Assembly (NCBI GenBank): GCA_963664705.1
Contig: OY761556.1
Location: 4,736,001-4,800,000, forward strand
Origin: Acidobacteriota bacterium
GTDB taxonomy: Bacteria; Acidobacteriota; UBA6911
DNA: 64,000 nt
Direction: 5' to 3'
In this document: piece after piece, positions 23,906 to 64,000 of the stretch
Layout: every line of letters begins with the position of its first letter
Numbering within the stretch: position 1 is the stretch's first letter
The notes under the pieces: model-generated
The model's database searches: none
What the model saw: only the letters and a program-made list of their open reading frames with translations
What the model was told of the DNA's origin: nothing
Program-made: the position numbers and the translations under genes

Positions 23906-24207
23906 AGATCCAGGCTTTCACAGTGCCGGCAACAAAAATGGGCAATCAAGACAAAGCGCTCTGCATGCTTTTACCAAAGGACTAGTAGGCAGTTTCGATC
24001 CTATGTAAGGAGATAGGCCCCGCAAATTCACTTTCCCCCTTGCCCAGGATTGCCGTTGGCAACCATAATTAGAGGGTTCATATGATTTGCGAGTAGTGAC
24101 TAGGGTAATGTCCTCATCCGGTTTGGTTCTGCAAGACTTCGTTGCGGCTGCCCGGCAATAGACAATCCCGACATCATGGTTTTGCCTCCAGGAAACAGGG
24201 CGCACCT

Positions 24208-27147
24208 ATGCCTTCGAAGACCGCATCACAACGGGATCTGCTGCAAACCGTCCGGGAACTAAAACTCCGCCTGGAAAAGACGGAGAGTTTGCTCACACAA
24301 ACAGATTCTCCAATGGCAAATTTGGGTTCCGCCTCCGATCCGGGAGAGCTTTCGGCTCTCGTCGATGTCCTTCAGGATGAGGTCTGCAGTGTTGAAGAAA
24401 ACGCCGCTTTGAAAAGCAGCGCGATCAGAAATCCGGCGGAGGCTGCTAGAAGACAGGCCGAAGAGGCGCTGCGGCTCTCCGAGGAAAAATTTGCCAAGGC
24501 TTTCTCGTCGAATCCGGCAGCTATTGCCATCAGTCGTCTCAGCGATGGGGTCATTCTCGACATAAACGAGACCTGCCAGTCAATGTTCGGATACCGTCGA
24601 GAGGAAGTTGTCGGTCGATCAACCAGGGAATTGAAGTTCTGGCTTTCCCCCGATCGACCTCAACTTCTCAATGAGCTGTCGACGAAGGGCTTTGTTCGCA
24701 ATCGTGAACAGAAGCTTCTCCGGAAATCAGGGGAAATTTTCACGGCGCTCGTGTCGGCGGACGTTCTGGTCGTTTCAGGCGAAAAGCTGATTCTGTCAAC
24801 CTGGCTGGACATCACCGAACTCAAGCTTACGGAAGATGCACTCCGTGAAAGTGAAGCCCGCCTGCGTCTCTTCATTGAACATGCCCCGGCGGCTTTGGCC
24901 ATGTTTGATCGAGAGATGCGCTATCTGAGTGCCAGCCACCGCTGGCTGAGTGACTATGGACTGGAAGGCCGTGATCTGACCGGCCTGTTTCACTATGAAG
25001 TATTTCCGAAGATACCGGCAGGCTGGAAACAGGCCCATGCGCGCGGGCTGTCGGGCGAGGTAGTCCGCACCGAAGAAGATCCATTTGAAAGGGCCGATGG
25101 ATCCCTGCAATGGCTTCGCTGGGAAATTCACCCCTGGCACGACGCATCGGGCGACGTCGCAGGCATCGTGATCTTCACGGAGGATATTACCGAACGCAAG
25201 CTTGCCGCCGAGGCATTGCGGAAAAGTGAAGAGAGATTCCGGGTCATGTTTGAAGGCCATGGAGCCGTGATGATGCTGATTGAGCCGGAGACGGGCGCTA
25301 TCATTGATGCAAACGCTGCGGCGGCGAATTTCTATGGCTATACGAGCCAACAATTGCGCTCCATGCACATCGAACAGATCAATCAACTCTCGCCCGGGCA
25401 GGTAGCGGCAGAGCGCCGAAATGCGGTCGATCTCGATAGGAATCAATTTGTTTTTCCTCATCGGCTGGCCGATTCGCAGATTCGGTGGGTCGAAGTGCAT
25501 TCTTCGCCGGTGATAATTCAAGACCGGCCCATGCTCTTTTCGGTAATCCATGATATTACCGCACGGCGTCAGGCCGAAGCGGCGCTGTATCTGCTAAATG
25601 CCGAGCTGGAACAGCGGGTCATTGAACGAACCACGGAACTGGCCAAGGCTGCCGACAAGGTGCGTGCGGAGCGAAAACGCTTTCTTGACGTGCTGGAAAC
25701 TTTACCCGTCGTCATCTGCCTTATCCGGCCGGATTATCGCCTGGAATTTGTAAACCGCGCATACCGCGATGCGCTCGGACATAATCAGGGGCTGCTCTGT
25801 CACAAAAGCCAGTTCGATCGGGACACGCCATGCGCGGAATGCCAGGCATTTATGCCGCTGGAAACAGGCCAGCCGCATAAATGGGAATGGGCGCTTCCAA
25901 ACGGCAGGATATTCGAAATCCACAATTTCCCCTTCGCCGACATTGATGGCGCGCCGATGATCCTCGAGATGGATGTGGATATCACAGAGCGCAGAACGGC
26001 CGAAAAAAAACTGCTTCATGCCCACGAAGAACTGGAAGCGCGAGCGGCTCAGTTGAGACAGCTCGCCGCCGAATTGACGCTGGCCGAGCAGCGAGAGCGG
26101 AAACGGCTCGCGCTGGTATTGCACGACGGCCTTCAGCAAATGCTGGTCGCCGCCAAGATACAGGTTGCCTTAATAGGTCGCAGCAAGGATATCCCTAGAA
26201 CTGCCGCTGATATTACCAACCTGATTGATGATTGCATCCAGACTTCCAGGTCATTGACGGCCGAGCTCAGCCCGCCGATTCTTCATCAAGGAGGGCTGGT
26301 TCCCGGATTGGAATGGCTGGTCCAATGGATGTTTGACAAGCATGGGCTTTCCGTCGAACTGACCACGCAGGGACAAACCAGGACGTTGCCTGAGGAAATC
26401 ACGATTCTCCTTTTTCAATCCGTCCGGGAATTACTCTTCAACATCGTAAAGCATGCCGGAATCCGCACGGCCCGAGTCGGGGTGGCTTATCACCAGGGAC
26501 GAATCCAGGTTGAAGTGGCCGACGAGGGTTCGGGATTCGATTCCATGCGGCTTGGCAATCGCACATCGCATGAAGGATCGGGAATGGGACTGTTCAGCAT
26601 CAGGGAACGGTTGGGATACCTCGGCGGAACCATGGAAATTGACGCTGCTCCGGGAAAAGGGACCAGGCTTCAACTGGTAATTCCGGCCATCGGCACCGCC
26701 GGCGCCATCCCTGAGCCCGGCACCGGACCCAGAACCTCGGTGGCCACTACCTGGGCGGAGGTGGATAAAGGCGATTCAACGAAGATTCGCGTCGTTCTGG
26801 TGGACGATCACCTCGTTATGCGCCAGGGATTGGCCAGCCTCCTCAGCATTGAATCGGATATTTTGGTCGTGGGCGAAGCCTCCGACGGGAAATCCGCCAT
26901 CGATCTTGTTTTGAATACAAGACCGGCTGTCGTTCTGATGGATATCAGCATGTCCGGAATAGATGGCGTGGAGGCCACGAAGAGGATTCGCGAAAAAATG
27001 CCGGAAGTCAAAATTATCGGACTCTCTATGTTTCAGGAAGGAGAGCAGGCCTCGGCCATTCTTGAAGCCGGCGCCATTGCCTATCTCGCAAAATCAGGAC
27101 CTTCCACCGCGGTCATAGAAGCGATACGCAATTGCATGCGTCCATAG
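24208..27147 (+). CDS. Cytoplasmic multi-PAS hybrid histidine kinase (HisKA_3-HATPase-REC)
   Basis: About 4 PAS domains ending DITE/DITA; LHDGLQQ; NIVKHA; DEGSGF; NarL-type REC; start ATG 24208 or earlier. Confidence 0.92.
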   Translation: MPSKTASQRDLLQTVRELKLRLEKTESLLTQTDSPMANLGSASDPGELSALVDVLQDEVCSVEENAALKSSAIRNPAEAARRQAEEALRLSEEKFAKAFSSNPAAIAISRLSDGVILDINETCQSMFGYRREEVVGRSTRELKFWLSPDRPQLLNELSTKGFVRNREQKLLRKSGEIFTALVSADVLVVSGEKLILSTWLDITELKLTEDALRESEARLRLFIEHAPAALAMFDREMRYLSASHRWLSDYGLEGRDLTGLFHYEVFPKIPAGWKQAHARGLSGEVVRTEEDPFERADGSLQWLRWEIHPWHDASGDVAGIVIFTEDITERKLAAEALRKSEERFRVMFEGHGAVMMLIEPETGAIIDANAAAANFYGYTSQQLRSMHIEQINQLSPGQVAAERRNAVDLDRNQFVFPHRLADSQIRWVEVHSSPVIIQDRPMLFSVIHDITARRQAEAALYLLNAELEQRVIERTTELAKAADKVRAERKRFLDVLETLPVVICLIRPDYRLEFVNRAYRDALGHNQGLLCHKSQFDRDTPCAECQAFMPLETGQPHKWEWALPNGRIFEIHNFPFADIDGAPMILEMDVDITERRTAEKKLLHAHEELEARAAQLRQLAAELTLAEQRERKRLALVLHDGLQQMLVAAKIQVALIGRSKDIPRTAADITNLIDDCIQTSRSLTAELSPPILHQGGLVPGLEWLVQWMFDKHGLSVELTTQGQTRTLPEEITILLFQSVRELLFNIVKHAGIRTARVGVAYHQGRIQVEVADEGSGFDSMRLGNRTSHEGSGMGLFSIRERLGYLGGTMEIDAAPGKGTRLQLVIPAIGTAGAIPEPGTGPRTSVATTWAEVDKGDSTKIRVVLVDDHLVMRQGLASLLSIESDILVVGEASDGKSAIDLVLNTRPAVVLMDISMSGIDGVEATKRIREKMPEVKIIGLSMFQEGEQASAILEAGAIAYLAKSGPSTAVIEAIRNCMRP

Positions 27148-49831: not shown

Positions 49832-50704
49832 TCACTCGCCGGCTGGGATGACCATGTCATGTATGGAAGTCTGTTCCGCCGTTACTCCATACCTGCCGTC
49901 GGCAGTGCGTATGGGGCGCGCCAGAGCGCAGGCAGGGTCATGTGTGAAAAAGAGGAGCCCGCCGCCCGCGATTTTGCTGTCCAGGTATTGCCTTTTTTCA
50001 TCAATGAGCAATTCCGGATATCGATCGTAGCCCATTGTTACCGGCAGATGCATCCAGGGTTTACCGGGGATCAGATCGCTGCAGAATGATATCCCGCCAA
50101 CGCACCCAATCTCAGCAAGCAATTGTCCGGGAGTATGCCCATCACTGTAGTCGAAGCGCACAGACTTGCCGAGGCTTGGCGTGTATTCTCCATCGACAAG
50201 CTCGAGTCGTCCGCTTCGTGACATGCAATCAATGAGCTCAGGTATAAAAGATGCGCGATCGCGTGGATGCGGATGAAGAGCACGATCCCATGCGCGGCCG
50301 CCAACGACCAATCTCGCGTTTGGAAACAGCAGCTCCGGCGCTGCGCCTTCGTGGTAGGCCGCAAACAAGCCCCCAATATGATCAAAATGCAAATGGCTGA
50401 TCACGACGGCATCGATGTCCTCATGCCGGAGTCCAAGTGTCGCGAGCGAATCAAGCAGCACGTGGCGGTCTTCCGCGACTCCATAACGCTTCTTCAGTTT
50501 CGGTTCAAAGAACGCACCGATCCCGGCCTCAAAAAGCACAGTCTTTCCGTCCACCTCGCGCGCCAGCAGGGCCCGGCAGGCTATTTCAATGCGGTTTTCC
50601 TCATCAGCGGTGAGCCACCTGGACCAGAGCGCGCGCGGCGCATTGCCGAACATGGCGCCCCCATCCAGGCGTTGCCGGTTCCCTTCTATCGACCACAGTC
50701 GCAT
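49832..50704 (-). CDS. MBL-fold metallo-hydrolase
   Basis: [28 protein letters not shown]; start MRLWS with GGAGG RBS. Confidence 0.92.
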
Positions 50705-50902
50705 GCAATGACTCCTCCATAGCTTCAAGCCGGGAAAGTATAGCGAGGCGTTCAGGAAAGATCCATTCCCGGCTTGGAGCGTATCCGGGAATTAGGATAT
50801 GAGGCACGCCCGAATGGGAACTGCGGAGTGCAGCAACTTGCAGCCGTCTTTGAAAACCATAAAGCAGAAGGGCTTCGCCCTCGAGGACATTTGACGGCGA
50901 CT

Positions 50903-53881
50903 TCACTTCCTCAAACAAGAGCGTATCGCCTCAATGACCGCTTCGGAAGGTCCGCTTTTGATCAGATATGCGACGGCGCCGGCTTTACGTATGGCTGCGG
51001 ATTCCTCGCCTTCGTTAAACATGGACAGGCCAATGATTTGTATTTCAGGCATTTCCTGATGAATGATTCTGGTGGCTTGAATCCCGTCCATTCCTGGCAT
51101 GCCAATATCCATCAGAATCACATCAGGCCGAATCTTCCGGACCAATTTCACCGCAGATTCACCATCCGACGCCTCTCCCACGATCTTGATATCCGGCTCC
51201 GCTCCCAGCAAACCAGCCAAACCCTGTCGCATGACCATATGATCGTCTACCAGGGCCACGCGTATTCTTGCAGTTGAATCGGGTTCCTCGGCAGATGCCA
51301 CCGCAACAGAGATCTCTGATTTCGGGCTTTTCCCAACTTCGGAAGATTGCTCCGGCATAATGGCATACGGAGAAATGAGACGAAATCGGCTGCCTTTTCC
51401 TACGGCACTTTCCATCTCAATTCTCCCGCCCAGGTAACTGAGGCGCTCACTGATACTGAAGAGCCCCATACCCGTGCTCTTGTCCTCCCTCGTGCGGAGC
51501 TCATCGGGATCGAATCCCGCACCCTCATCGGCTACTTCCACCTGAATCTGTCCATCAAGCTGGATAACTTCAACGTCCGCCGTCCTGACACCGGCATGCT
51601 TTACAATGTTGAACAGAAGCTCACGAACAGACTGGAATAGCAGGACACTTATTTCCTCGGAAGCACGCTGCATAGGTTCCTGGCAAGCCAGCCTCACAGT
51701 GAGGCCATGTTTGGTCTGCATCCATTTGGCCAACCACTCCAGCGCAGGAAGGAATCCGCCTTTGTGCAGAATAGGGGGACTTAATTCGGCGGTAAGCGAC
51801 CTGGATGTTTCGATCGAGTCATCAATAAGGCTTGCTACGGCTGCGGCCCTTTCCTGTACATCGCCGCCGCGCTCCAGGAGAGCAAGGCTGAATTTGGCTG
51901 CGGCCAGTGTCTGTTGCAGCCCGTCGTGAAGCAGCATCGCCAGCCGCTGTCGTTCGCGCTGCTCAGCCAGCGTCAAATCCGCCGCGAGTTGGCGCAGCTG
52001 CCGCGACCGTTGTTCCAATTCGAGCGTGCGCTCCTCCACCCGTTTCTCCAGTGAGTTGGTAAGCTCCTGCAAACGCTGATCGGCCAACTTCCGTGCAGTA
52101 ATATCCATCTGTACACCGTCCCAGACGGTACTGCCGTCGTCCATCCGGCGCGGTCGAGATCGCAGTCGCATCCAGCGCACCTCGCCATCCGGTCGGCGCA
52201 TGGGCACATCCATGTCGAAGTCGGATTGCTCGTGGATGCATCGTGCTTCCTCTGTCATTAATCGCTGGTAATACTCAGGCGGAATCTGCCCGTGCAACGT
52301 ACCGGCATCGCGCAGGGCATCTTCAATGCGGATGCCATTGAGTTTTTCGATTCCGGCACTGAAATAGGTGAATCTTCCCGCAGCACCATCCGAGCGGACA
52401 TATTGATAAACGGCGCTGTCCGGAAGATTGTCGCCAAGCAGACGTAACCGCTCCTCGCTGTCGCGCAGCGCCTCCTCTGCCCGTTTGCGTGCGATCGTAG
52501 CGCTCAGGAACTCGGCTGTCATCAACAGGATGTCTCCCACCGATTCCGAGAATCCCCCGGTACAGGAGGACATCAGCTTCAGCACGCCATAGGATTGGTT
52601 TCCATACCGAAGCGGAACCAGGATCATCGACCGCAAGCCGATTTTTCTGCAAGCCTCGCGGTCAACCCTCGGATCGGTTTCGGTATCGTCGGAACGCATC
52701 AATTCGCCGCTGGTCATGCAACGACCGGACAAACTGCCCGCTACTTTCAGCCGCAGTCCGACAAACCCGGCGGCAATCCCGCTGGCGGCTTCATATACCA
52801 TTTCCTCGCCGTCAGCGATTTCGAGACTGGCGCCTTCCGCGTTGGTAAGCCGGGACATGCGTTCCAGGACCAGTTGCAGCAATCCCTTGTAGTTCGTATC
52901 GGTCCGGGCAATCTCACGCTGTGTGTCCAAAACAGAAGCCAGCCGCTCGGTCTGAGCCTTCAATATCGATTCAGTCCGCTTGCGGTCGGTGATAGTCTGC
53001 TTTTGGTCCGTAATATCGCTGAAAAAGGTTGCCAGCCCCTCTTCCGTGGGATAACAGCGGCAGTCGAACCACCGGTTCAAAGGCTCCGGATAAAAGCATT
53101 CAAATTGCAGCGGCTTCCGTTCCTCCATGGAACGGCGGAAGTTCACTCCAAGGGGCAGATCGTAGGCAGCCGGCCATAGCTCCCACAGAGATTTGCCCAT
53201 AAGTTGACTGCGCGTCATGCGAAAGGCACTGGTTGCGGCTGGATTTACATGGGTATAGCGCCACTCCCGATCAAAAGCGGCAAAGCAGTCGCTCATCTGC
53301 TCCAGAACCGCGGTGGTTCTTGCGTTCGCCAACTGCAAACCTTCTCGCTGCATACGAAGCTGTTGAATCAGTTCCGTTGAGTTTTCAAGTTCGGTAAGAT
53401 CACTCGCCACGACGCATATGCTGGCTCCGTCCGGTTGGTTGAGCACATTGGCGGAGATATGCGCCGGCAGAGAGGCTCCATCCCCGCCGCAGAAAACCAT
53501 CCGTCTTTTAATGGACTCCTTCTGAACATCGAGTAGTAAGGAAGATGCGGCCTCTTTATCGGTTTCGGCCACGAATTCGCCGAGATTGTGGCCTACAATC
53601 TCCGAATTCGAACATCGGATGAATTGGCTGAACTGGGCATTGCAGAAGAGAATCCTTCCATCAAAAGTAAGGGTGAATGCCGCCTCCTTCATGGTTTCCA
53701 CGATCAGGCGATAGATGGATTCCGTGCCAAACAGCGAAAATACCTGATCCCCGCTGGGGCCCGAAACGATAATGGCGTCCACTTCGCCTTGGCGAATTGC
53801 CCGTAGTGTTTCTTCCGCCTCATGAAGGCGCGTCTGCAAATCCTCAATCAATTCCTGTTTGGATTGCCTCTTGTCCAGCAT
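50903..53881 (-). CDS. Kai-linked PAS-PAS-GAF-PAS hybrid histidine kinase (HisKA_3-HATPase-REC)
   Basis: AEETLRAIRQGEVDA N-terminus; LHDGLQQ; NIVKHA; REC; starts 10 nt after kaiB. Confidence 0.92.
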   Translation of the reverse strand: MLDKRQSKQELIEDLQTRLHEAEETLRAIRQGEVDAIIVSGPSGDQVFSLFGTESIYRLIVETMKEAAFTLTFDGRILFCNAQFSQFIRCSNSEIVGHNLGEFVAETDKEAASSLLLDVQKESIKRRMVFCGGDGASLPAHISANVLNQPDGASICVVASDLTELENSTELIQQLRMQREGLQLANARTTAVLEQMSDCFAAFDREWRYTHVNPAATSAFRMTRSQLMGKSLWELWPAAYDLPLGVNFRRSMEERKPLQFECFYPEPLNRWFDCRCYPTEEGLATFFSDITDQKQTITDRKRTESILKAQTERLASVLDTQREIARTDTNYKGLLQLVLERMSRLTNAEGASLEIADGEEMVYEAASGIAAGFVGLRLKVAGSLSGRCMTSGELMRSDDTETDPRVDREACRKIGLRSMILVPLRYGNQSYGVLKLMSSCTGGFSESVGDILLMTAEFLSATIARKRAEEALRDSEERLRLLGDNLPDSAVYQYVRSDGAAGRFTYFSAGIEKLNGIRIEDALRDAGTLHGQIPPEYYQRLMTEEARCIHEQSDFDMDVPMRRPDGEVRWMRLRSRPRRMDDGSTVWDGVQMDITARKLADQRLQELTNSLEKRVEERTLELEQRSRQLRQLAADLTLAEQRERQRLAMLLHDGLQQTLAAAKFSLALLERGGDVQERAAAVASLIDDSIETSRSLTAELSPPILHKGGFLPALEWLAKWMQTKHGLTVRLACQEPMQRASEEISVLLFQSVRELLFNIVKHAGVRTADVEVIQLDGQIQVEVADEGAGFDPDELRTREDKSTGMGLFSISERLSYLGGRIEMESAVGKGSRFRLISPYAIMPEQSSEVGKSPKSEISVAVASAEEPDSTARIRVALVDDHMVMRQGLAGLLGAEPDIKIVGEASDGESAVKLVRKIRPDVILMDIGMPGMDGIQATRIIHQEMPEIQIIGLSMFNEGEESAAIRKAGAVAYLIKSGPSEAVIEAIRSCLRK

Positions 53882-53891
53882 AGCCGCAGGC

Positions 53892-54239
53892 CTATTTCTT
53901 GGGACGAAGATCAAGTCCGACCAGAATCCGTTCCTGATCCGTCAGGTCGCCAATGAATCTTCGTAAGGGTTGAGGTAATTTTCTAATCAGCGTCGGGGCT
54001 GCAATGATTTGTTCACCTGCGGCCAACGTCGGTTGCTTGTAGATGTCGATGATCTGCAGGTCATAGCGACCTTTGAGATGCTGCTCGCAAATCTCGCTTA
54101 TGGATGTTATCGCAGCCGACGACCGCCGGTTGATGCCTGCCACATACAATCTGAGGATGTACGTTTGTTTGGATGTGGTTTTTTTCAGATCTTTCTCGAA
54201 TTCGGCTGCGCTCTTAATAGGTTTCGCTTTTTTGGGCAT
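53892..54239 (-). CDS. kaiB: KaiB family protein
   Basis: LRLYVAG, IIAAPTLIRKLPQPLRRFIGDL. Confidence 0.95.
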   Translation of the reverse strand: MPKKAKPIKSAAEFEKDLKKTTSKQTYILRLYVAGINRRSSAAITSISEICEQHLKGRYDLQIIDIYKQPTLAAGEQIIAAPTLIRKLPQPLRRFIGDLTDQERILVGLDLRPKK

Positions 54240-54330
54240 GGTTAAGGGAGTTTTATCAGGCCGACAAATGCAAATCCAGCCCCGAAACCAATCTTGCTTC
54301 GACCGGCGACTGGTACCATTGGCCTCATTG

Positions 54331-56028
54331 TCAGATTCTCGCCTTCGTCATAGTTTTCCGATCCGTTGAAATCATCTGCTGCCGATCGGATTCCTCCTGC
54401 TTTGTGATCTTCAGTTCGTTGTCGAGGCTCTGGAGTTTCTGTGTAATGACCGCCGCCTGAGCCTGCAGATTCGCGCGTTCCTGTTCGAGTTCGCGTTGTC
54501 GTTGCTCGGAAGCCTGCTGGTCCGCAAGCACCCGGGCCCGATCGTGTGCCTCCTGAACAAGGCGCGCAGAACCGGTCAGCACCTGGCCGGGACCGACATA
54601 CACCTTGGTCAACCGAATACCATGATCGGTAAGCTGGAACTCCCGCATCTGATTGGAATGAGACATCCCGCGGCTTTTGAGAAGATACAACAACCGGTTT
54701 CGTTCGCCATTGGTTTCCAGCATCCGGACAAGAAGCCAGGTGTCCATCAACGAAGAAATCGCGACATCGCTTTTCTCGAGAGATTCACCGCCTTCCGTGA
54801 GGCTGGTCAGAACCGAGGTGATCTGTCGTGTCTTCAGAAAATCCACGATTCTCGTCATCATTGCGCGAATCTCGATCTCCTCACCAATGGAAGAGAGATT
54901 GGTGACAGGATCCATCACGACGCCGGCGGGATTGAATTCAGTGATCAATTGATGGATTCGGGCCAGATGCATCTCCAATCCACACATTGTTGGTCGCACG
55001 GAATGAAAGAGGAGCAGGTTCCTTTTTCTCCACTTGTCCAAATCGATGCCGATTGATTTCATATTCCGGATAATTTGGTCCGGAGCTTCTTCAAAAGACA
55101 AATAAGCGCACTTTTCGCCTCGGCCACACATCCCGTCGACGAATGCGGCGGCGATACTCGATTTCCCCGTGCCTGCGGTTCCGGATATCAGGACGCTCGT
55201 GCCCCGAAAGTAACCTTTGCCTCCCATCATGGCATCCAACTCTGGAATGCCCGTTGAAACCCGTTCGGTGGTTACAGGATAATCCAGGCCCAGCGAACTG
55301 ATTGGGAGAACGGACAACCCATGTTCATTGATTAAGGTAGGATATTCATTGGTGCCATGCCGGGAGCCGCGGTATTTCACAATACGCAAACGCCGCGTGG
55401 CTACCTGATTGCTAACCCGATGATCCAGGAAGATAACGCAGTCACTGACGTATTCTTCAATGCCGTGGCGGGTCAGCGTATTTTGGCCCTGCTCGCCCGT
55501 TATGATGACTGTCACGCCCTTATTCTTGAGCCAGCGAAAGAGGCGACGCAATTCAGCCCTGAGAATGCTTTCATTCGGCAATCCCGCAAAGAGAGCTTCG
55601 ATAGTATCCAGAACCACGCGCCTGGCGCCCAACTCCTCAATCATGAGATTCAGGCGAACAAAGAGGCCTTCGAGATCATATTCCCCAGTCTCCTCGATTT
55701 CGCTGCGCTCTATATGCACATGATCAATCGCCATCTTTTTCCGGGCGATCAGCCGACGCACATCAAAACCCAGGGAAGCCACATTCTGGATTAATTCCGC
55801 GGCAGTCTCCTCAAAGGACATGAAGACGCCGGGTTCGTCAAACTCCTGAGCGCCTCGAACAATGAACTCCATTGCCAGAAGTGTCTTACCGCTGCCGGCG
55901 CTGCCGCAGATCAATGTTGGTCTGCCACAGGGCAGTCCGCCATCGGTGATTTCGTCGAGACCGGCAATGCCTGTCGGGCATTTTTCAATACCCGGAGAAA
56001 CACTGCGATGCGCGCTTTTTTTGGCCAT
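54331..56028 (-). CDS. kaiC: Double-domain KaiC with C-terminal coiled coil
   Basis: GSAGSGKT and GTAGTGKS Walker A; SFEE x2; KYRGS; ISSLMDTW phosphosite region. Confidence 0.96.
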   Translation of the reverse strand: MAKKSAHRSVSPGIEKCPTGIAGLDEITDGGLPCGRPTLICGSAGSGKTLLAMEFIVRGAQEFDEPGVFMSFEETAAELIQNVASLGFDVRRLIARKKMAIDHVHIERSEIEETGEYDLEGLFVRLNLMIEELGARRVVLDTIEALFAGLPNESILRAELRRLFRWLKNKGVTVIITGEQGQNTLTRHGIEEYVSDCVIFLDHRVSNQVATRRLRIVKYRGSRHGTNEYPTLINEHGLSVLPISSLGLDYPVTTERVSTGIPELDAMMGGKGYFRGTSVLISGTAGTGKSSIAAAFVDGMCGRGEKCAYLSFEEAPDQIIRNMKSIGIDLDKWRKRNLLLFHSVRPTMCGLEMHLARIHQLITEFNPAGVVMDPVTNLSSIGEEIEIRAMMTRIVDFLKTRQITSVLTSLTEGGESLEKSDVAISSLMDTWLLVRMLETNGERNRLLYLLKSRGMSHSNQMREFQLTDHGIRLTKVYVGPGQVLTGSARLVQEAHDRARVLADQQASEQRQRELEQERANLQAQAAVITQKLQSLDNELKITKQEESDRQQMISTDRKTMTKARI

Positions 56029-56119
56029 CCTCGAATCCTCGGTTTAGGCGTTGGGGCGCAAGTTGCAGAAAGGGAGCTTGCGCCCGGCTGGAATCATTTT
56101 CAAACACAATAAAGCTCAT

Positions 56120-56139
56120 ATTGTTGTAGTGCCAACAAT
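56120..56139. promoter_or_regulatory. Crp-type palindromic box upstream of kaiC
   Basis: ATTGTTG-TAGTGC-CAACAAT. Confidence 0.65.
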
Positions 56140-56231
56140 TTAGCAATCAAAAAGGCTCGCTTCGCCTTCATCCCAGGCAGCGCGAGAAGGATGAACCGGT
56201 ATAAGTTGAAGGCAATCATATATTTAATGAC

Positions 56232-56821
56232 TTTGAACCGCGAAGACCTCGAAGACCGCAAAGATCTTTTGGCTAATTTTGCTGTAATGTATAAAGCATC
56301 AAGGATGGAATCCAGCATATGATCTGGCAAGAACGATAACCGCAAAACCTGCAAAAATATTTTCTTTGCGGTCTTCGCGGTTAGTGGGGCTACTAATTCG
56401 GTCAAGTCAGGTTTAATGACTTTTGTCTAAAACCGTGGTTCAGCACCTTCATTTAGTGGGCAAACTCTGGTGTGCAAAGGATAAGATTAGGATCCGACGA
56501 TCAAATCAGGTTCCATAAATAAATGGCGCTGATTAGTTTTTGTATTTGAACCGCGAAGACCTCGAAGACCGCAAAGATTTTTTGGCTAATTTTGCTGTAA
56601 TGTATGAAGCATCCAGGATGGAATCCATCATATGATCTGGCAAGAACGATAACCGCAAAACCTGCAAAAATATTTTCTTTGCGGTCTTCGAGGTCTTCGC
56701 GGTTAGTGGGGCTACTAATTCGGTCAAGTCAGGTTTAATGACTTTTGTCTAAAACCGTGGTTCAGCACCTTCATTTAGTGGGCAAACTTTGGTGTGCAAA
56801 GGATAAGATTAGGATCCGACG
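56232..56821. repeat. Direct duplication (~270 bp x2) containing a MITE-like inverted-repeat element
   Basis: Copies 56232-56499 and 56545-56821; copy 2 has a perfect 29-bp IR (56549-56577 / 56676-56704). Confidence 0.92.
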
Positions 56822-56824
56822 CCA

Positions 56825-57637
56825 TTACTCAAAAACTTCACCAGGGGTTGGCCGGTAGGAACGGGCTGGTCGAGATCGGCCGATGCGGGTACCACCCATA
56901 CCAGCGACACCGGAAATCCGGAGAGTCCTGGTGTAAGCATCCATGTCCCTTTTGTGCGTCCAATAACACTCACACGACATGGAGGCAATCCGGCGCTTAT
57001 CAGTGATCTTTATCAAACGCTGACGATATGAAATCAGCCCGCTTGATTTCAGAGCCCCCAGCTCCAAGCTGACGGTTGAGCGATTCACTCCAAGCATGAG
57101 GGACAGGAATTCGTGCGTGACAGGGTAACTGTCATCCTCGGCCCAATCCGACGTCATCAGAAGCCAACGACAAAGCCTCTGTTGCACCGTGTGGAATCTA
57201 TTGCAGAGCACGAGTTGCGTGGATTGATTGTGTAGCTGCTGAAGGAACACCAGCGAGCTTTTGCAGTAAGCTGTGTCGTTCCCCAAATGACGTTTGAGGG
57301 TAGCGGCACTGATCTTAAGGGCCTCGCCAGGAATCTGTACGATATATCGGTGAGCCGAATACTGGTGACCGGTAAGGACTTCGACAGGAAGCCCACCTTC
57401 TCTGCCGACCGCGCCCACTTCAATACTATGTCCGGTTGAGCTCGCAGCAATAATGGATATGAGGCCTGAGTTCAAAAACAGAACCGAGTCGACCGTATCG
57501 CCTGCCTTGAAAAGTACGTGGCCCGGGGGAAGCAAAATGACCTCAAGATCCGGCAGTATTTTCTCCAAAACTGCCTTGGGTAGCGACAGCAGCATCCTGT
57601 TACGAATCGCGGGGCTACTCATTTTATAGCCAGACAT
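56825..57637 (-). CDS. Crp/Fnr family transcriptional regulator
   Basis: NRMLLSLP, VGREG, CNRFHTVQQRLCRWLL, THEFLSLMLGVNRSTVS HTH, SCECY. Confidence 0.93.
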   Translation of the reverse strand: MSGYKMSSPAIRNRMLLSLPKAVLEKILPDLEVILLPPGHVLFKAGDTVDSVLFLNSGLISIIAASSTGHSIEVGAVGREGGLPVEVLTGHQYSAHRYIVQIPGEALKISAATLKRHLGNDTAYCKSSLVFLQQLHNQSTQLVLCNRFHTVQQRLCRWLLMTSDWAEDDSYPVTHEFLSLMLGVNRSTVSLELGALKSSGLISYRQRLIKITDKRRIASMSCECYWTHKRDMDAYTRTLRISGVAGMGGTRIGRSRPARSYRPTPGEVFE

Positions 57638-57769
57638 CGAACCCTCATATCCAAAGAGTTATAAATGCCGAGGGGGTGAGAGGGGGAACCGGCTGCTGCT
57701 TCGAGACCAAAACCGACCTACCCCATGCAATAAATCGGGGCTAACTTTATCACCTTTTTGACAACGACG

Positions 57770-57787
57770 CTGTTGGCCGGCCAACAG
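57770..57787. promoter_or_regulatory. Crp-type palindromic box upstream of crp
   Basis: Perfect 18-bp palindrome CTGTTG-GCCGGC-CAACAG. Confidence 0.65.
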
Positions 57788-57978
57788 GTCCAATTATTTC
57801 TTTTTGAAAATTTGATCTGGGAATGGAACCTTTGCACCGATTGATCTTACCGGACTGAGGCTAGCAAAATGGAGAGGTAAACCGGCGTTTCGTTCCTGAA
57901 GTGCAAATGCAAGGCACGAGGCAGGGGGGAGTTCTTTGTCTCAGGCAGAACAAAGCCCGCACCCACTTCCCTGCAAAC

Positions 57979-58296
57979 CTATTTCCTGGGCCGCAGGTCC
58001 AATCCAACCAAAACCCGCTCGACGTTTGACAAATCGCCTATGATCTTTCGAACCGGCACCGGCAGCTTTCGGACAAGAGTCGGGACTGCGAGAATCTGGT
58101 CGCCTCTGGCAAGTTGAGGATTTTCCAGAAGATCTATCACCTCTATTCGATAGTGGCCATCCAGATGCTCCTCGCAAATCCTCTTTAAATTCGCGAAAGC
58201 AGTCAAAGCCCTGGCAGTGCGGCCTGCTATGTAGAGCCGGAGATCCCAGGTCTCCATCTGCTTTTTGATTTTATTGCCTGATTTTTTTTGGGGCAT
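57979..58296 (-). CDS. kaiB: Second KaiB family protein
   Basis: [32 protein letters not shown]; start 58296 or 58314. Confidence 0.95.
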
Positions 58297-58374
58297 GGTA
58301 GTTCCCAAATCCATCTGAAGCCGTTGATCGTAGATGCACGATTATGGGTACTAGTTTTCTGCGCGAATCCACAT

Positions 58375-58390
58375 TGTAGTTGTCCCGACA
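58375..58390. promoter_or_regulatory. Degenerate Crp-type box upstream of the second kaiB
   Basis: TGTAG-TTGTCC-CGACA. Confidence 0.45.
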
Positions 58391-58497
58391 ACAAGTAGGC
58401 AACGAAATAATGTGCACCACATAATTATGGTGTTGTCTGTCCTGGGCTGCAGGAATGAAGCCCTCTGGGACGGCGGCGGCCACGGGCAGCCTTAAAA

Positions 58498-59373
58498 TCA
58501 GTTCTCGGTGGGCAATTTAAGGACTTCCTCGATGACAAGCATTTCCAAAGGCGTTTTGCGCGCATCGAACTTGAGCCCCAGTTTTTCCGCCGCACCGAAA
58601 AGAGAAACCGGAGACCCCGTATCGAGCATTTGCAATGCGCTCGGTGGAAGAACCACGCCACGATTAACCGCCGCGCGCACTAACATGTTTCGGTAATCCT
58701 CTTCGGTAATATCAAACGCAAAATCGTAGCGCCCCGTGAGATTGGTCATGTCGATGATTGGGCGATCCAGGAATGAATCCAGGCTGGTGGCCAGCAGCGT
58801 CATGGTCAGCTTTTTGCCTTCGAAACGATTGTTCGCGAATGTATACGAGGCACCCTGTCCAATATTGACCGAGATCCCCTGGCTGGATCCGGTTCCGCTC
58901 GCCTCAAAGGCTGCCGGACGTTCATGATTTTCCTGGTTGGAATCGGGTAGGCTTTCATTGATCTTGAGTCCGCCCTTGCTAACTTCAAGGACATATACCG
59001 GGAATTCCTTTTTTTCCCGATGCGTCTTCAGATGAAATCTTTCAATCAGCAATGCCTGCAGCATTTCAGGTATTTGACTTGGTGGAACGCCTTCCGGGAT
59101 TTTCGCAGCAATATCAAATCGCTCGGAATTCAGCCAATCCGGTCCCGAGATCTGATAACTTTTCAACCGGTAGGCGATCCCAACATAATCCTTCAAGGCC
59201 ATTCTGCCGTGGATTTGCGCACCATCGATGCGAATGCCCAGCGTTACAGACTGCGGATCCGATTGCCCCTTTGCCGGCCGGATCGACGCCACCTCAAAAG
59301 CAGGACCGGTCTGGGCAATAGCAACGCCCGCAAGAAGGAGTAACAGGCCGAAGACAATAACCATTCGCAACAT
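58498..59373 (-). CDS. TIGR03435-like Acidobacterial secreted protein
   Basis: AFEVASIRP, GPDWLNSERFDIAAK, MLQALLIERF, DRPIIDMTNLTGRYDF, C-terminal PTEN. Confidence 0.9.
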   Translation of the reverse strand: MLRMVIVFGLLLLLAGVAIAQTGPAFEVASIRPAKGQSDPQSVTLGIRIDGAQIHGRMALKDYVGIAYRLKSYQISGPDWLNSERFDIAAKIPEGVPPSQIPEMLQALLIERFHLKTHREKKEFPVYVLEVSKGGLKINESLPDSNQENHERPAAFEASGTGSSQGISVNIGQGASYTFANNRFEGKKLTMTLLATSLDSFLDRPIIDMTNLTGRYDFAFDITEEDYRNMLVRAAVNRGVVLPPSALQMLDTGSPVSLFGAAEKLGLKFDARKTPLEMLVIEEVLKLPTEN

Positions 59374-59634
59374 AGTTCTCTTTCCTTTGGAAAGAACATC
59401 CAGGCCCGGATAACTAAAGCTCCCCTAAGTGGCCGGCGGATCGCGTCTCTCCCGACATTTCATTCCTATAGTACGTTGTCCCTCGCAGGAAGGTCTCAGG
59501 TGTGTGGCGTATTTTTATCCGCGAACAATTTCATCAGCGGCTTCCGTGCGTATGATGCCCCTGCGGTGAATTTGCCACAACAGCGGGAAATAACGCTCTT
59601 CCCCGTTGTTCTCGCAGGACAACCATTATATTGT

Positions 59635-60624
59635 ATGAACTACAAACCGGATCTGGAAGTGGCGGCACCCCATTCTTTGCCATGTTGTTCCCGTTGGAGG
59701 AAGTTTTTGGTCAGGCAGGCAGGGTACTCCCTGGAGCATATTGCTTTTGAAGGCAAAACTGTAAACCGTTCGAGTCGTTTGCGGCATGCGCCGGCACACG
59801 CCGTCGTCGCCGGCATGGACTCGGACGATCTCACGCAACAGGATCGCTGCGAAGAACCCATCCCCTCGATTTTGCAGGCGGCTGGTTTATCAGAGAAGGC
59901 TTACCGCGCCGCTTCCATGAACCGGCGGCTGAATGCATGCCTGCGGTCCTTGAAAGCAACAACAGTCCCGGAAGCCGCCCATCTCCTCATCAAGCACCCG
60001 GAGCTGAAGGAACCTGCGCTGGACGCTCTCCTGATCGGGGTTACCGAATTTTTCCGTGACCGGCCGGTTTTCGATGCACTCAGCCGGCTTATCGAGACAG
60101 ATCTTCCCCAAAGGACCGGGACTTTGCGTGTCTGGAGTGCAGGGTGCTCCAGCGGAGCGGAATTGTACAGCATGGCCTTTCTCCTTGCAGAAGCCGGGCT
60201 TCTTCACCGGAGCATTCTGTTGGGAACCGACTGCAGGAAATCGGCCATTCGCGAAGCCAGGGCTGGACTCTACAGCGCATCCTGTCTGCAAACCCTGGAT
60301 CCATTGCTTCGAGAGAAATATTTCCGGAAGGTCGGGACGCAATGGCAGGTCCTGGATTCCGTCCGTTCCCATGTTCGGTGCCGGACCCAGGACTTGCTTT
60401 CGGTCTGCGAAAAAGGGCCCTGGGACATCATCCTCTGGAGAAACATGGCCATTTATTTCGAGACAAACGCCAGCCACCAGATTTGGAGCCGCATTACCAA
60501 AGAAATGCGTCCCGGCGGCCTGATCGTCACAGGAAAGGCAGAGCGCCCGCCCCATTCCATCGGTCTTAGTACTCTAAGCAGAAGTATCTATCGCCGGGAA
60601 AAGGGCAGCGGGCGATTGAGATAA
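59635..60624 (+). CDS. cheR: CheR-family methyltransferase (start uncertain, 59635-59815)
   Basis: IGVTEFFRD, VWSAGCSSGAELYS, DIILWRNMAIYF, G..E. Confidence 0.85.
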   Translation: MNYKPDLEVAAPHSLPCCSRWRKFLVRQAGYSLEHIAFEGKTVNRSSRLRHAPAHAVVAGMDSDDLTQQDRCEEPIPSILQAAGLSEKAYRAASMNRRLNACLRSLKATTVPEAAHLLIKHPELKEPALDALLIGVTEFFRDRPVFDALSRLIETDLPQRTGTLRVWSAGCSSGAELYSMAFLLAEAGLLHRSILLGTDCRKSAIREARAGLYSASCLQTLDPLLREKYFRKVGTQWQVLDSVRSHVRCRTQDLLSVCEKGPWDIILWRNMAIYFETNASHQIWSRITKEMRPGGLIVTGKAERPPHSIGLSTLSRSIYRREKGSGRLR

Positions 60625-60639
60625 GTTGGAGATTTCAGA

Positions 60640-63600
60640 ATGATCCGAAACACAAGGATAGTGACCAGTTTTGTTGCGGTCCTGATTGTAGTCAGCCTTT
60701 TTGGGCTGGCCTCCTACATCAACACCCAACGCCTGATCAGCGGCAACAAGTGGTTACTGCACACACACCAGGTAGTCGAAAACCTCCAGGAAATCCTGTC
60801 TGTACTCAAGGATGCTGAAACCGGACAACGCGGCTATATCCTTTCAGGCCAGGATCACTACCTGGAACCCTATAACATCGCGACCAGCCGCATTGAAAGC
60901 CGATTTGCAATATTGGCTGAACTGATCCAGGACGATGCCGTCCAGCAATCGAACCTTGATCGCCTCCAACGGATGACTGCCTTGAAGCTGGATGAACTGA
61001 AACAGACGATTGAGCTGCGGCGCCGCTCCGGTCTGGACGCGGCCATGCCCATCATCCTCAGCGACCGCGGCAAAAATACAATGGACGACATCCGGGGTCT
61101 CGTCTCGCGGATGGACGAACGCGAACGGGCAGATCTTCAGCTGCAGCAAAAAGATTCCGAGAGCAGAGCGCGGATGACCATGTGGACAATCGCAGCGGGA
61201 CTGCCATTGTCCTTATTGGTTCTGGCGGTAGCGGCCCTCACGCTGACAGGCAGCGGCCTATATACCGATGCAATTGCCGGGCTGGTCACCAAACGATCCC
61301 TGTGGGAAAAGAGATTTCTACGCTATTTCCTTGCCATCGTCGCTGCCGTCCTGGCAGGAATTCTCCGGCAGTGGCTTCTGCATTTTGGCCCCTTGCCGCT
61401 ATACATTACGTTCTACCCCGCCGTTCTGCTGGTGGCCACGATCAGCGGCGGAGGCCCCGGCATCATCACTACTGTCTTGTCGGGATTCATTACCCTCTAC
61501 TATTTCATTACACCCCATGGACAGTTTTCAATCGAATCTCCGTCGGATCTGCTGGCTTTGGCCATCTTTATCGGAACCAACCTGACCCTGTGTGTGATTG
61601 CCGAACGCCTTAGACGGGCCCGTTGGGCCGAGGCCATGAGCATTGCAAAACAGCAGGAATCCGAGGAACTGGCGAAAAAGAATGAAGAGTTGGTCCAGCA
61701 GTCGGAAGAGCTCCTGCAACAATCGGAAGAGCTGGCTCAGCAAAACGAGGAACTCCAGTCCCAGTCCGAGGAAATACAAACGCTCAACACCGAGCTGACC
61801 GGTCGGGAAAACATGCTTCGGAAACTTCTCGAAGCCGCCCGGTTGCATCACTCCGAGGAGTCCGTCCTGAAGGAGGTATGCTCCGCAGCCAAAGATATCC
61901 TGGGCTCGGCAGCTTCAGCGGTTGTTATATGCGAAAAGAAAGGAGAGGCGTTGTTCATCCGCGCGCAAGCCGGATCACGGGAAACACCCAAGCCATGGGC
62001 TATCGAGGGATCCTTTCCGGGGCTGGTGATGCAGGAAGGACGCACGGCCTGCCTGAACGATTCCTCGCTGCGCCCGGACCTGAAGCTTCTCCAGGTTCCC
62101 GAGGCAACGCCATTCCAGTCCGCCCTGTCAACGCCGCTGCGTGTCGGCAGCGAGAATTTCGGAGCCGTCACCGTCTATGGCCTGCATAAACAGCAGTGGA
62201 CCGAAGAACAGTTTCGTCTGGTTGAATGGCTTGCCACACAATGCGGCCATATTTTAGAAACTCTCAAATTGCAGGATCAGCTGCGCGCAACAGCCGATCA
62301 GAACCGGCTGCTTTCCGATTTGCTTGAACACTCGGAACAGCCCTTCGGCATCGGTTATCCCGATGGGAGATTGGGTTATGTCAATGCGGCATTTGAGCGT
62401 CTCACCGGATATACAAGGCCAGAGCTTGAAACCATGGACTGGGCCAATGTATTGACGCCTCCACAGTGGCGATCCATCGAGCAGGAAAAGCTCAAAGAAC
62501 TCCAATCCACCGGACAGTCCGCACGCTATGCCAAGGAATATGCTCGAAAGGATGGCACCTGTATTCCCATAGAGCTCCTGGTTCATTTGATCAAAGACGG
62601 CAAGGACCAACCGCTCTACTACTACTCCTTTATCACCGATATTTCGGAACGCAAAAAGACCGAAGCCGAGGTGCAGAAACTCGCGCAGCAGCGTCAGTTG
62701 GCCTTGGATGCGTCCCACCTGGGCTGGTGGCATTTTGATCCGTTGACGCAGGTATCCTCCTGGGATGTGCGTTACCGCGAAATTTTTGGCGTATCCGGAC
62801 ACAGCCGCCCCAACGAGGAAATACTCAAGCGTCTCCATCCCGAAGACCTTCCCGGCGTCTGGGCCAAAGTTGAAGCCGCTCTGAATCCGGCGGATCCCAA
62901 GCCCTATTCGGCCGAATACCGCATTAACCTGCCGGATGGATCCATGAAATGGATCGAAGCCCATGGCGTGGCAACTTTCGACGGTAAAGATTCGCAGCGG
63001 CGCGCAGTGGCCCTTGTCGGCACGGTGGCGGATATTTCCGAACGAAAGCGGGCAGAGGAGTTGCTGCGGGACACCAATACTCTGCTGGAACAGAGAGTGG
63101 AGGAGAGAACAAAAGACCTGGCGCAGCGAGCCGCACAGCTTCGAGCCCTTGCCGGCGAACTGACTATGACCGAGCAGCGCGAAAGAAGTCGCCTGGCCAG
63201 GGTATTGCACGATCATCTGCAGCAACTGCTGGTCGCCGCCAAGTTTCGGCTGGCAATTCTTGGCAAAGGTGCCGAAGATCTGATCAAAAAGGCGATCACC
63301 GAAGTCGAAAGCCTGGTCGACGAATCGATTGCGGCCTCGCGATCCCTGACTGCGGAACTCAGTCCGCCGATCCTTCACGAGGCCGGACTGAAGGAGGGAT
63401 TGGAATGGCTGGCCCGAAGAATGGCGGATAAACAGGGGCTGATCGTGGATCTGGAAATGGAAGATATCGCGCCCTTGCCCGACGATCTGAAGATCATGCT
63501 GTTTGAATCGGTCCGGGAGTTGCTGTTCAACATTGTCAAGCACGCGCATACACATTCCGCATCCCTGAATCTGCGACGGGTAGACGGGCTTCTGCAATTA

Positions 63601-64000
63601 ACCATCTCGGATGAAGGGGATGGCTTCGATCCGAATGCACTGCCGAAACCCGGGGAATCCGGCCATGGATTCGGACTATTCAGTGTTCGGGAGAGACTGG
63701 AGCTTTTTGAGGGAAGCATGGAAATTCAAAGTGCTCCCGCTCAAGGCAGCCGAATCTTTCTGTCTGTCCCGATACCGGAACACTCCATTGCACCCAAGCA
63801 CGTCGATCAGCCCCCAGTGTCGCCGGAAATACCGGTCTTTCAGCAGCGCTCCGGCCCGGCGCCGGATAAAAAGATCCGCGTGCTGCTGGCGGACGATCAC
63901 TCTGTCGTCAGACAGGGGATTGCCGCCATGCTCGGCATGGAGTTGGACATGGAAGTTGTTGGAGGCGCATCCACGGGACATGAGGCGATTGCGCTCGCAG
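60640..64000 (+). CDS. Membrane hybrid histidine kinase CHASE3-DUF4118-like-coiled coil-GAF-PAS-PAS-HisKA_3-HATPase-REC, truncated by the window end
   Basis: Absent from the ORF track (no stop in window); translates MIRNTRIV...DAETGQRGY (CHASE3), YITFYPAVL, LHDHLQQ, NIVKHA, VLLADDH. Confidence 0.92.
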   Translation, partial: MIRNTRIVTSFVAVLIVVSLFGLASYINTQRLISGNKWLLHTHQVVENLQEILSVLKDAETGQRGYILSGQDHYLEPYNIATSRIESRFAILAELIQDDAVQQSNLDRLQRMTALKLDELKQTIELRRRSGLDAAMPIILSDRGKNTMDDIRGLVSRMDERERADLQLQQKDSESRARMTMWTIAAGLPLSLLVLAVAALTLTGSGLYTDAIAGLVTKRSLWEKRFLRYFLAIVAAVLAGILRQWLLHFGPLPLYITFYPAVLLVATISGGGPGIITTVLSGFITLYYFITPHGQFSIESPSDLLALAIFIGTNLTLCVIAERLRRARWAEAMSIAKQQESEELAKKNEELVQQSEELLQQSEELAQQNEELQSQSEEIQTLNTELTGRENMLRKLLEAARLHHSEESVLKEVCSAAKDILGSAASAVVICEKKGEALFIRAQAGSRETPKPWAIEGSFPGLVMQEGRTACLNDSSLRPDLKLLQVPEATPFQSALSTPLRVGSENFGAVTVYGLHKQQWTEEQFRLVEWLATQCGHILETLKLQDQLRATADQNRLLSDLLEHSEQPFGIGYPDGRLGYVNAAFERLTGYTRPELETMDWANVLTPPQWRSIEQEKLKELQSTGQSARYAKEYARKDGTCIPIELLVHLIKDGKDQPLYYYSFITDISERKKTEAEVQKLAQQRQLALDASHLGWWHFDPLTQVSSWDVRYREIFGVSGHSRPNEEILKRLHPEDLPGVWAKVEAALNPADPKPYSAEYRINLPDGSMKWIEAHGVATFDGKDSQRRAVALVGTVADISERKRAEELLRDTNTLLEQRVEERTKDLAQRAAQLRALAGELTMTEQRERSRLARVLHDHLQQLLVAAKFRLAILGKGAEDLIKKAITEVESLVDESIAASRSLTAELSPPILHEAGLKEGLEWLARRMADKQGLIVDLEMEDIAPLPDDLKIMLFESVRELLFNIVKHAHTHSASLNLRRVDGLLQLTISDEGDGFDPNALPKPGESGHGFGLFSVRERLELFEGSMEIQSAPAQGSRIFLSVPIPEHSIAPKHVDQPPVSPEIPVFQQRSGPAPDKKIRVLLADDHSVVRQGIAAMLGMELDMEVVGGASTGHEAIALA

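Follow-up and report, generated by a model that had tools for sequence, protein, structure and literature searches.

Two KaiB subfamilies and a Kai-linked kinase module in a KaiA-less cassette of an Acidobacteriota bacterium

A KaiA-free, ATP/ADP-driven KaiC cycle has been described for Rhodobacter (Pitsawong et al., 10.1101/2022.11.28.518275), and the hourglass KaiBC of Rhodobacter sphaeroides (8DBA, 8DB3, 8FWI, 8FWJ) combines a double-domain KaiC, a Ser-Ser phosphosite and a long tail with no KaiA. Several genomic neighbours of such systems are already in print in article texts: a PAS kinase gene adjacent to kaiBC in both R. sphaeroides and R. rubrum (PMC10931921), PAS genes beside KaiA-less kaiBC (the KidA paper, PMC9478674), and, outside cyanobacteria, kaiC-kaiB with ST or SS sites and a kinase or GGDEF/EAL gene directly downstream (the 'orange' group of the Ramlibacter genome paper, PMC3164672). 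KaiC2 traits are covered in the texts of PMC5520375 and PMC11372060, and systems mostly or wholly without kaiB in those of PMC11832031 and 10.1101/2022.01.26.477890. Here we analyze a five-gene kai locus in a window of 64,000 nucleotides (nt), the whole stretch under study, from an Acidobacteriota bacterium (assembly GCA_963664705.1, contig OY761556.1, positions 4,736,001 to 4,800,000). Sequence comparison shows the locus to be a copy of a widespread cassette in which kaiC, kaiB1 and kaiB2 are followed by a conserved N-terminal helix+PAS module fused to a variable output. It is otherwise an ordinary member of this common cassette, marked by a single local rearrangement and by an output interface that has received little description; its crp gene and repeat add little.

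All five genes lie on the minus strand and, as read in the window, follow the order kaiB1-crp-(repeat)-kaiC-kaiB2-kinase, in agreement with the order and shared strand given in a preliminary description of this DNA. The kaiC gene (54331-56028) encodes a 565-amino-acid (aa) protein that is of the Rhodobacter (KaiC2) type by its sequence matches. It scored 715.8 bits against NF006799 (cut-off 408) and 321 bits against the cyanobacterial model TIGR02655, below the cut-off of 546. The best solved match was Rhodobacter KaiC 8DBA, with 638.9 bits over residues 12-564, tail included, versus ~314 bits for S. elongatus KaiC. Two PF06745 stretches carry Walker A motifs at residues 42 and 283, SFEE catalytic motifs at 71 and 311 and arginine-finger motifs at 212 and 445. 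The ISSLMD motif at 424 gives the phosphosite pair S425/S426, which aligns with the Rhodobacter serine pair mutated to EE in 8FWI. A C-terminal extension of ~50 residues aligns with the coiled-coil-forming tail of 8DBA up to residue 564. The two ATPase domains, Ser-Ser site, C-terminal coiled coil (here a sequence alignment) and KaiC2/Rhodobacter affiliation proposed in the preliminary description all hold.

This is the only double-domain KaiC in the genome. Acidobacterial records are among its closest matches, and a full-length KaiC match was found in 2 of 24 other genomes of the genus, so that Kai cassettes are patchy there. The preliminary description had taken the system to be KaiA-less and its host to be non-phototrophic, and had suggested a genome search for kaiA as a check. 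A search of the genome, which is 98% complete, gave no KaiA (PF07688) match above cut-off (best match 11.3 bits, E 1.55; KaiA3 was not searched separately), while the Synechococcus control passed the cut-off. The genome likewise gave no match to a type I or type II reaction-centre gene. With no KaiA gene match, no Ser-Thr site and a TIGR02655 score under cut-off, the locus does not resemble a cyanobacterial KaiABC or KaiA3B3C3 oscillator.

Conservation of the cassette was assessed over 85 loci, comprising the best 80 of 275 KaiC relatives and 5 loci from related genomes. The Ser-Ser pair is present in 74 of the 85 KaiC frames (one has SA and 10 were unread). Among the 71 loci with at least 1.5 kb of downstream sequence, 69 carry a protein with the N-terminal module; 54 have exactly two kaiB matches and the module, and three have more than two. 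Two loci lacked the module in one search, and one of these had it in another search. Two cassettes occur in one genome of the same genus (G005); one of them includes three kaiB genes, the middle one long-branched (L029:6155-7197). Cassettes with kaiB and the module kinase, but with no kaiC in the sequence covered, occur at L176:5868-8554, where crp directly precedes the kaiB pair, and at L182:3156-5218.

The hybrid histidine kinase (50903-53881, 992 aa) starts 10 nt after the kaiB2 stop codon. Its domains run from an N-terminal helix through PAS, PAS, GAF, PAS, HisKA_3 and HATPase to a C-terminal NarL-like receiver, and the residues H652 and D879/D880/D925/K975 are present, which confirms the hybrid kinase of the preliminary description. 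The module, delimited by alignment to 53366-53881, comprises the helix, an IRxGEVDA-like motif and the first PAS domain. Within its own genome the motif has a single match, on the Kai kinase. Across 251 genomes of the phylum, all 13 motif-bearing matches have a kaiB directly upstream and 12 of them also a kaiC; PAS-only matches have neither gene within 1.5 kb (0/11). The 13 include the window's genome and G062, and related genomes are not independent. The kinase, earlier tied to the Kai genes by position, is thus linked to them genetically through a Kai-specific N-terminal module.

Behind the module, 66 complete proteins carry diverse outputs: HisKA in 24, HisKA_3 in 14, HisKA_2 in three, GGDEF in six, EAL in five and sigma-54 in three. 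A front part that stays constant while the outputs vary is consistent with a docking module. The module is in frame with KaiB in 3 of the 66 proteins. In-frame joins of KaiB were seen at L034:7720-10176, L060:2597-5332, L046:8214-9530 and L086:5911-8007 (three with the module, one with KaiC); L034 resembles a clean fusion, and the other three may be frameshifts. Bacteroidota/Balneolota loci (L057, L067, L075, L078, L091, L094 and L095) have module proteins of ~235-250 aa with a short output. Kinase residues 1-175 retrieved only generic PAS clusters from the ESM Atlas. A protein search with the module alignment gave 1,870 matches of 7,992 scored; among the best 120, the entries that are named bear mostly generic PAS names and none a name related to Kai.

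A DNA-binding domain is absent from the kinase, and its gene has no regulator gene next to it. Its HisKA_3 core and receiver are common to 16 proteins of the genome, itself included (E<1e-40); one paralogue lies in the window at 24142-27147 (+) and is 57% identical in the core. Twelve LuxR-type regulators and nine Hpt domains are encoded elsewhere in the genome. At G000:C1:6892927-6893895 an Hpt frame of only 121 aa adjoins a LuxR/NarL-type regulator; the pair is a candidate relay that all 16 hybrid kinases of the HisKA_3-receiver type, the Kai-linked one among them, could share. The kinase is not of the SasA type: it contains no KaiB domain, its core is HisKA_3, and the SasA model NF006800 is not among its best 25 family matches.

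The two kaiB genes, kaiB1 (57979-58296; first ATG at 58314) and kaiB2 (53892-54239), are the only members of PF07689 in the genome. KaiB1 grouped with all 58 first-position KaiBs (Shimodaira-Hasegawa-like approximate likelihood ratio, SH-aLRT, of 99) and KaiB2 with all 56 second-position KaiBs. The two positions form the two sides of one branch with support 99, in a quick tree of 94 columns without bootstrap that excludes one truncated row and a stray row that is not a KaiB. The two divergent KaiBs of the preliminary description therefore represent two subfamilies. The kaiB2 subfamily sits directly before the PAS module. KaiB1 is intact, is up to 82% identical to relatives and has KaiB-RS as its best solved match.

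AlphaFold models from subfamily alignments differed between the two proteins. KaiB1 was predicted in a ground-like order, with a predicted local distance difference test (pLDDT) score of 71, and the top 17 Foldseek rows for this model were wild-type-fold crystal structures. KaiB2 was predicted in the thioredoxin-like, switched order (pLDDT 73); its top 11 rows were switched or KaiC-bound KaiB, followed by the SasA domain. By template-modelling (TM) comparison its best match was Legionella KaiB 4KUN, with a root-mean-square deviation of 1.1 Å. A preference of KaiB2 for the switched fold is suggested by these models as a lead only.

Members of the kaiB1 subfamily normally follow kaiC directly; here kaiB1 lies 2 kb upstream. 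Of the 70 related loci with 2.5 kb or more of upstream sequence, none has a kaiB before kaiC. Within the 91 nt that separate kaiC from kaiB2 is a short frame (54256-54300, minus strand) resembling the last 14 residues of KaiB, with its stop codon 16 nt before kaiB2. Its profile score was equalled by 3 of 20,000 random 91-mers of the genome, and its pattern matched one of 10,500 non-coding windows, that one being the real end of kaiB1. The distance from the stub pattern to the stop is the commonest among first-type KaiBs (29/57), and the stub is also present in public contigs. The in-operon kaiB1 was probably lost and the upstream copy kept, with the stub as its scar, as judged from these sequence comparisons. 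Relocation with a scar suggests that the two KaiBs do different jobs.

Between kaiC and crp lie two tandem repeat units (about 56221-56821, strand unassigned) of ~315 nt, 95% alike over 277 nt and with 29-nt inverted arms. The genome holds 102 matches in 28 clusters, often in tandem runs (e.g. G000:C1:5193399-5195097). The repeat is a dispersed palindromic element of ~300 nt resembling repetitive extragenic palindromic (REP) sequences or miniature inverted-repeat transposable elements (MITEs). A Kai-specific or CRISPR-like element was considered and rejected, because its 28 clusters are spread across the genome. Both this spread and the stub had been overlooked in the first reading of the sequence. 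The repeat and crp are probably guests in the gap between kaiB1 and kaiC, and the position of crp looks like the result of local rearrangement.

The crp gene (56825-57637) encodes a 270-aa Crp/Fnr-family regulator, with 50.8 bits to HTH_Crp_2 and 26.6 bits to cNMP_binding, under the cut-off of 27.5. A PDB search returned a single weak match, 1O5L. The residue we take to correspond to the pocket arginine of E. coli CRP seems to be replaced. A close homologue exists in 2 of 50 other genomes of the family, in neither case beside kai genes as far as the contigs reach. The preliminary description had placed Crp inside the cluster as a member. This did not hold up as a conserved arrangement: crp stands between kaiB and kaiC in 0 of 85 related loci, and Crp was rejected as a conserved internal cassette gene. 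It is better described as a recurring neighbour, for which sequence context makes a regulatory role possible. A different Crp subfamily recurs beside Kai cassettes, upstream of kaiC at L032, L171, L174, L175 and L179, in place of the module kinase at L039:8083-8814, and at L033:11773-12441.

Reasoning from gene content, motifs, subfamilies, linkage and the stub, we propose a locally rearranged KaiA-free cassette in which KaiB1 would take the role of Rhodobacter KaiB and KaiB2 would link the state of KaiC to the module and kinase. We regard this proposal, drawn by analogy, as about evenly poised between right and wrong. KaiC would autophosphorylate without KaiA according to the ATP/ADP ratio and, by homology to the Rhodobacter system, would lose its phosphates at low ATP/ADP with help from KaiB. 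KaiB1 would act as a slow fold-switching regulator of KaiC. KaiB2, in its predicted switched fold, would pass the state of KaiC to the Kai-specific module, so that KaiB2 and the kinase would together amount to SasA in two pieces, and a phosphorelay would then carry the signal from the kinase to an unlinked regulator. The cassette is likely an ATP/ADP-driven energy-state timer or switch; the analogy is supported by the closeness of KaiC, over its whole length, to that of the solved Rhodobacter hourglass.

Several observations weigh against this proposal. Twelve of the 71 loci have one kaiB and the module, and several single KaiBs that precede the module are of the first type, so KaiB2 is not required for module linkage. 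In L176 and L182 the sequence covered includes kaiB and the module but lacks kaiC. Both KaiB models are of only moderate confidence, and the KaiB2 alignment is the more diverse (mean column identity 54%, versus 69% for KaiB1), which confounds the contrast in fold. Broad alignments drive even ground-state KaiB to the switched fold according to the text of PMC10808063, and the switched-state markers R68/D83 given there are in neither KaiB; this alignment bias and the missing markers make a KaiB2 locked in the switched fold, in the manner of Legionella KaiB and KaiB-TV-4, a lead only. By manual mapping, the Rhodobacter positions 68/83/84 are V/V/G in KaiB1 and L/V/G in KaiB2, and the glycine kept in both has been linked to possibly disfavouring the switched state (text of PMC5520375). 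At least two of the three in-frame KaiB-module fusions may be frameshifts, and the stub pattern was composed after the stub had been noticed. For an organism in which no reaction-centre genes were found, there is no evident day-night cycle of energy.

The same parts could be wired otherwise. The PAS/GAF kinase could be a KidA-like input or tuner, or bind either KaiB; both KaiBs could switch and differ in rate or affinity; and the system could be a Legionella-like stress or growth-phase switch rather than a timer. In the KidA text (PMC9478674), the PAS domains at the N terminus of KidA are reported to bind KaiB in its switched fold and to tune the clock, and Legionella KaiBC is tied to stress, not rhythms, in the texts of 10.1101/2022.01.26.477890 and PMC5520375. 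The extra PAS and GAF sensors of the kinase, the first-type KaiBs that alone precede the module and the absence of switched-state markers from KaiB2 are also consistent with such wiring. It accounts less readily for the wide range of effector domains to which the module is fused, a pattern that an output would be expected to show, and for a second KaiB subfamily that keeps its own conserved residues (e.g. Y67 in 52/57) and its place beside the module across phyla. We consider this wiring unlikely, though it deserves serious attention. It is improbable that Crp is a true member that controls kai transcription or forms a transcriptional output, with Crps recruited to Kai cassettes more than once. 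Seven Crp frames were found in the flanks of 6 of the 85 loci (805 kb in total), above what 4-7 Crp genes per genome would give (five genomes checked; 5 over cut-off in the window's genome), but regulators cluster in islands, which inflates this enrichment, and four of the five background genomes were chosen for having Crp near kai. In a sister cassette of the host's family, crp immediately precedes kaiC in five of the six loci for which upstream sequence is available, and in L176 it precedes the kaiB pair; these Crps are only 23-29% identical to the window Crp and are kin of each other, so they probably reflect one event. L039 has the order kaiC-kaiB-crp with no module, and L092 carries, behind its module, a Crp belonging to the window's subfamily, but the window's own cassette lineage (L029, L030, L177 and L178; KaiC 68-69% identical) has crp in none of its four loci. 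Nor did the four intergenic stretches contain a CRP box of at least 8/10; one FNR-like 8/10 site was found.

The odd gene order could also be an artefact or sign of decay, through a misjoin at the dispersed repeat or degeneration of the cassette. In one sample, possibly that from which the window derives, public contigs reproduce 53000-56260 and 56692-59500 at 0-1 differences, and no listed public contig bridges the repeat (56260-56692). Because they stop there, the adjacency of the crp-kaiB1 block to kaiC rests on the window's own assembly. The multiplicity of the element in the genome, a contamination estimate of 6.2% and the patchiness of cassettes in the genus would fit such an explanation. 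On the other side, the genome is a single 6.9-Mb contig and the repeat spans only ~600 nt, read depth is alike in both blocks (24 versus 22; 11 versus 9; run X5 gave only 151-210-nt pieces at low depth), and all catalytic motifs of the cassette are intact. There are also only two kaiB genes genome-wide. A single public contig runs without a break through the stub and the place where the in-operon kaiB1 is missing, so kaiB1 is split from its operon regardless of how the blocks were joined. An artefact or decay appears very improbable.

A rearranged cassette with two KaiBs and a module kinase differs from the described systems in several respects. Unlike the Rhodobacter system, the cassette has two KaiB subfamilies, kaiB1 outside the operon and a HisKA_3 hybrid kinase, it is known from sequence only, and no reaction-centre genes were found in its host. 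For the Ramlibacter 'orange' group, the text of PMC3164672 describes no second KaiB subfamily or conserved N-terminal motif (its Fig. S6 may show such loci), and the KaiB-like N-terminal kinase domain in that text belongs to a kaiB-less group. In SasA a thioredoxin-like domain that binds KaiC is fused to a kinase, and the KaiB2 model matches the N-terminal domain of SasA (1T4Y, 6X61); here KaiB2 and the kinase are separate genes. Legionella pneumophila is alike in having a KaiA-less KaiC2 system in a non-phototroph, and its KaiB (4KUN) crystallized in the switched fold, but in sequence it is distant (53-57 bits) and Legionella has one KaiB. A search that covered the article texts of mostly open-access papers turned up none that describes the pairing of two KaiB subfamilies, the N-terminal module or a link to Crp.

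Beyond the cassette, a TIGR03435/DUF3738 protein, of a family linked to Acidobacteria and so in keeping with the probable acidobacterial host, is encoded at 58498-59373 (-), and a CheR methyltransferase followed by a CHASE3 hybrid kinase at 59476-64000 (+). Promoter and terminator scans were at shuffle level (5 observed versus 5.4, and 11 versus 8.2, respectively), and no Rfam family was found in window positions 50000-60000.

How KaiA-less KaiBC signals to the cell is an open question, and the text of 10.1101/2022.11.28.518275 leaves the solved Rhodobacter system without a demonstrated output. The cassette names a small candidate interface, KaiB2 and a module of ~170 residues. It is possible, if on balance doubtful, that KaiA-less Kai systems of bacteria and some archaea share a standard, so far undescribed output, in which a KaiB2 fixed in the KaiC-binding fold plugs into a conserved helix+PAS module with swappable effectors, and that the relocated kaiB1 was here kept under separate control. 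If such a two-piece SasA output is standard, the locus would be a natural experiment and the two KaiBs could not replace each other. If kaiB1 is under separate control, a Crp-type regulator may set the dosage of the timer KaiB.

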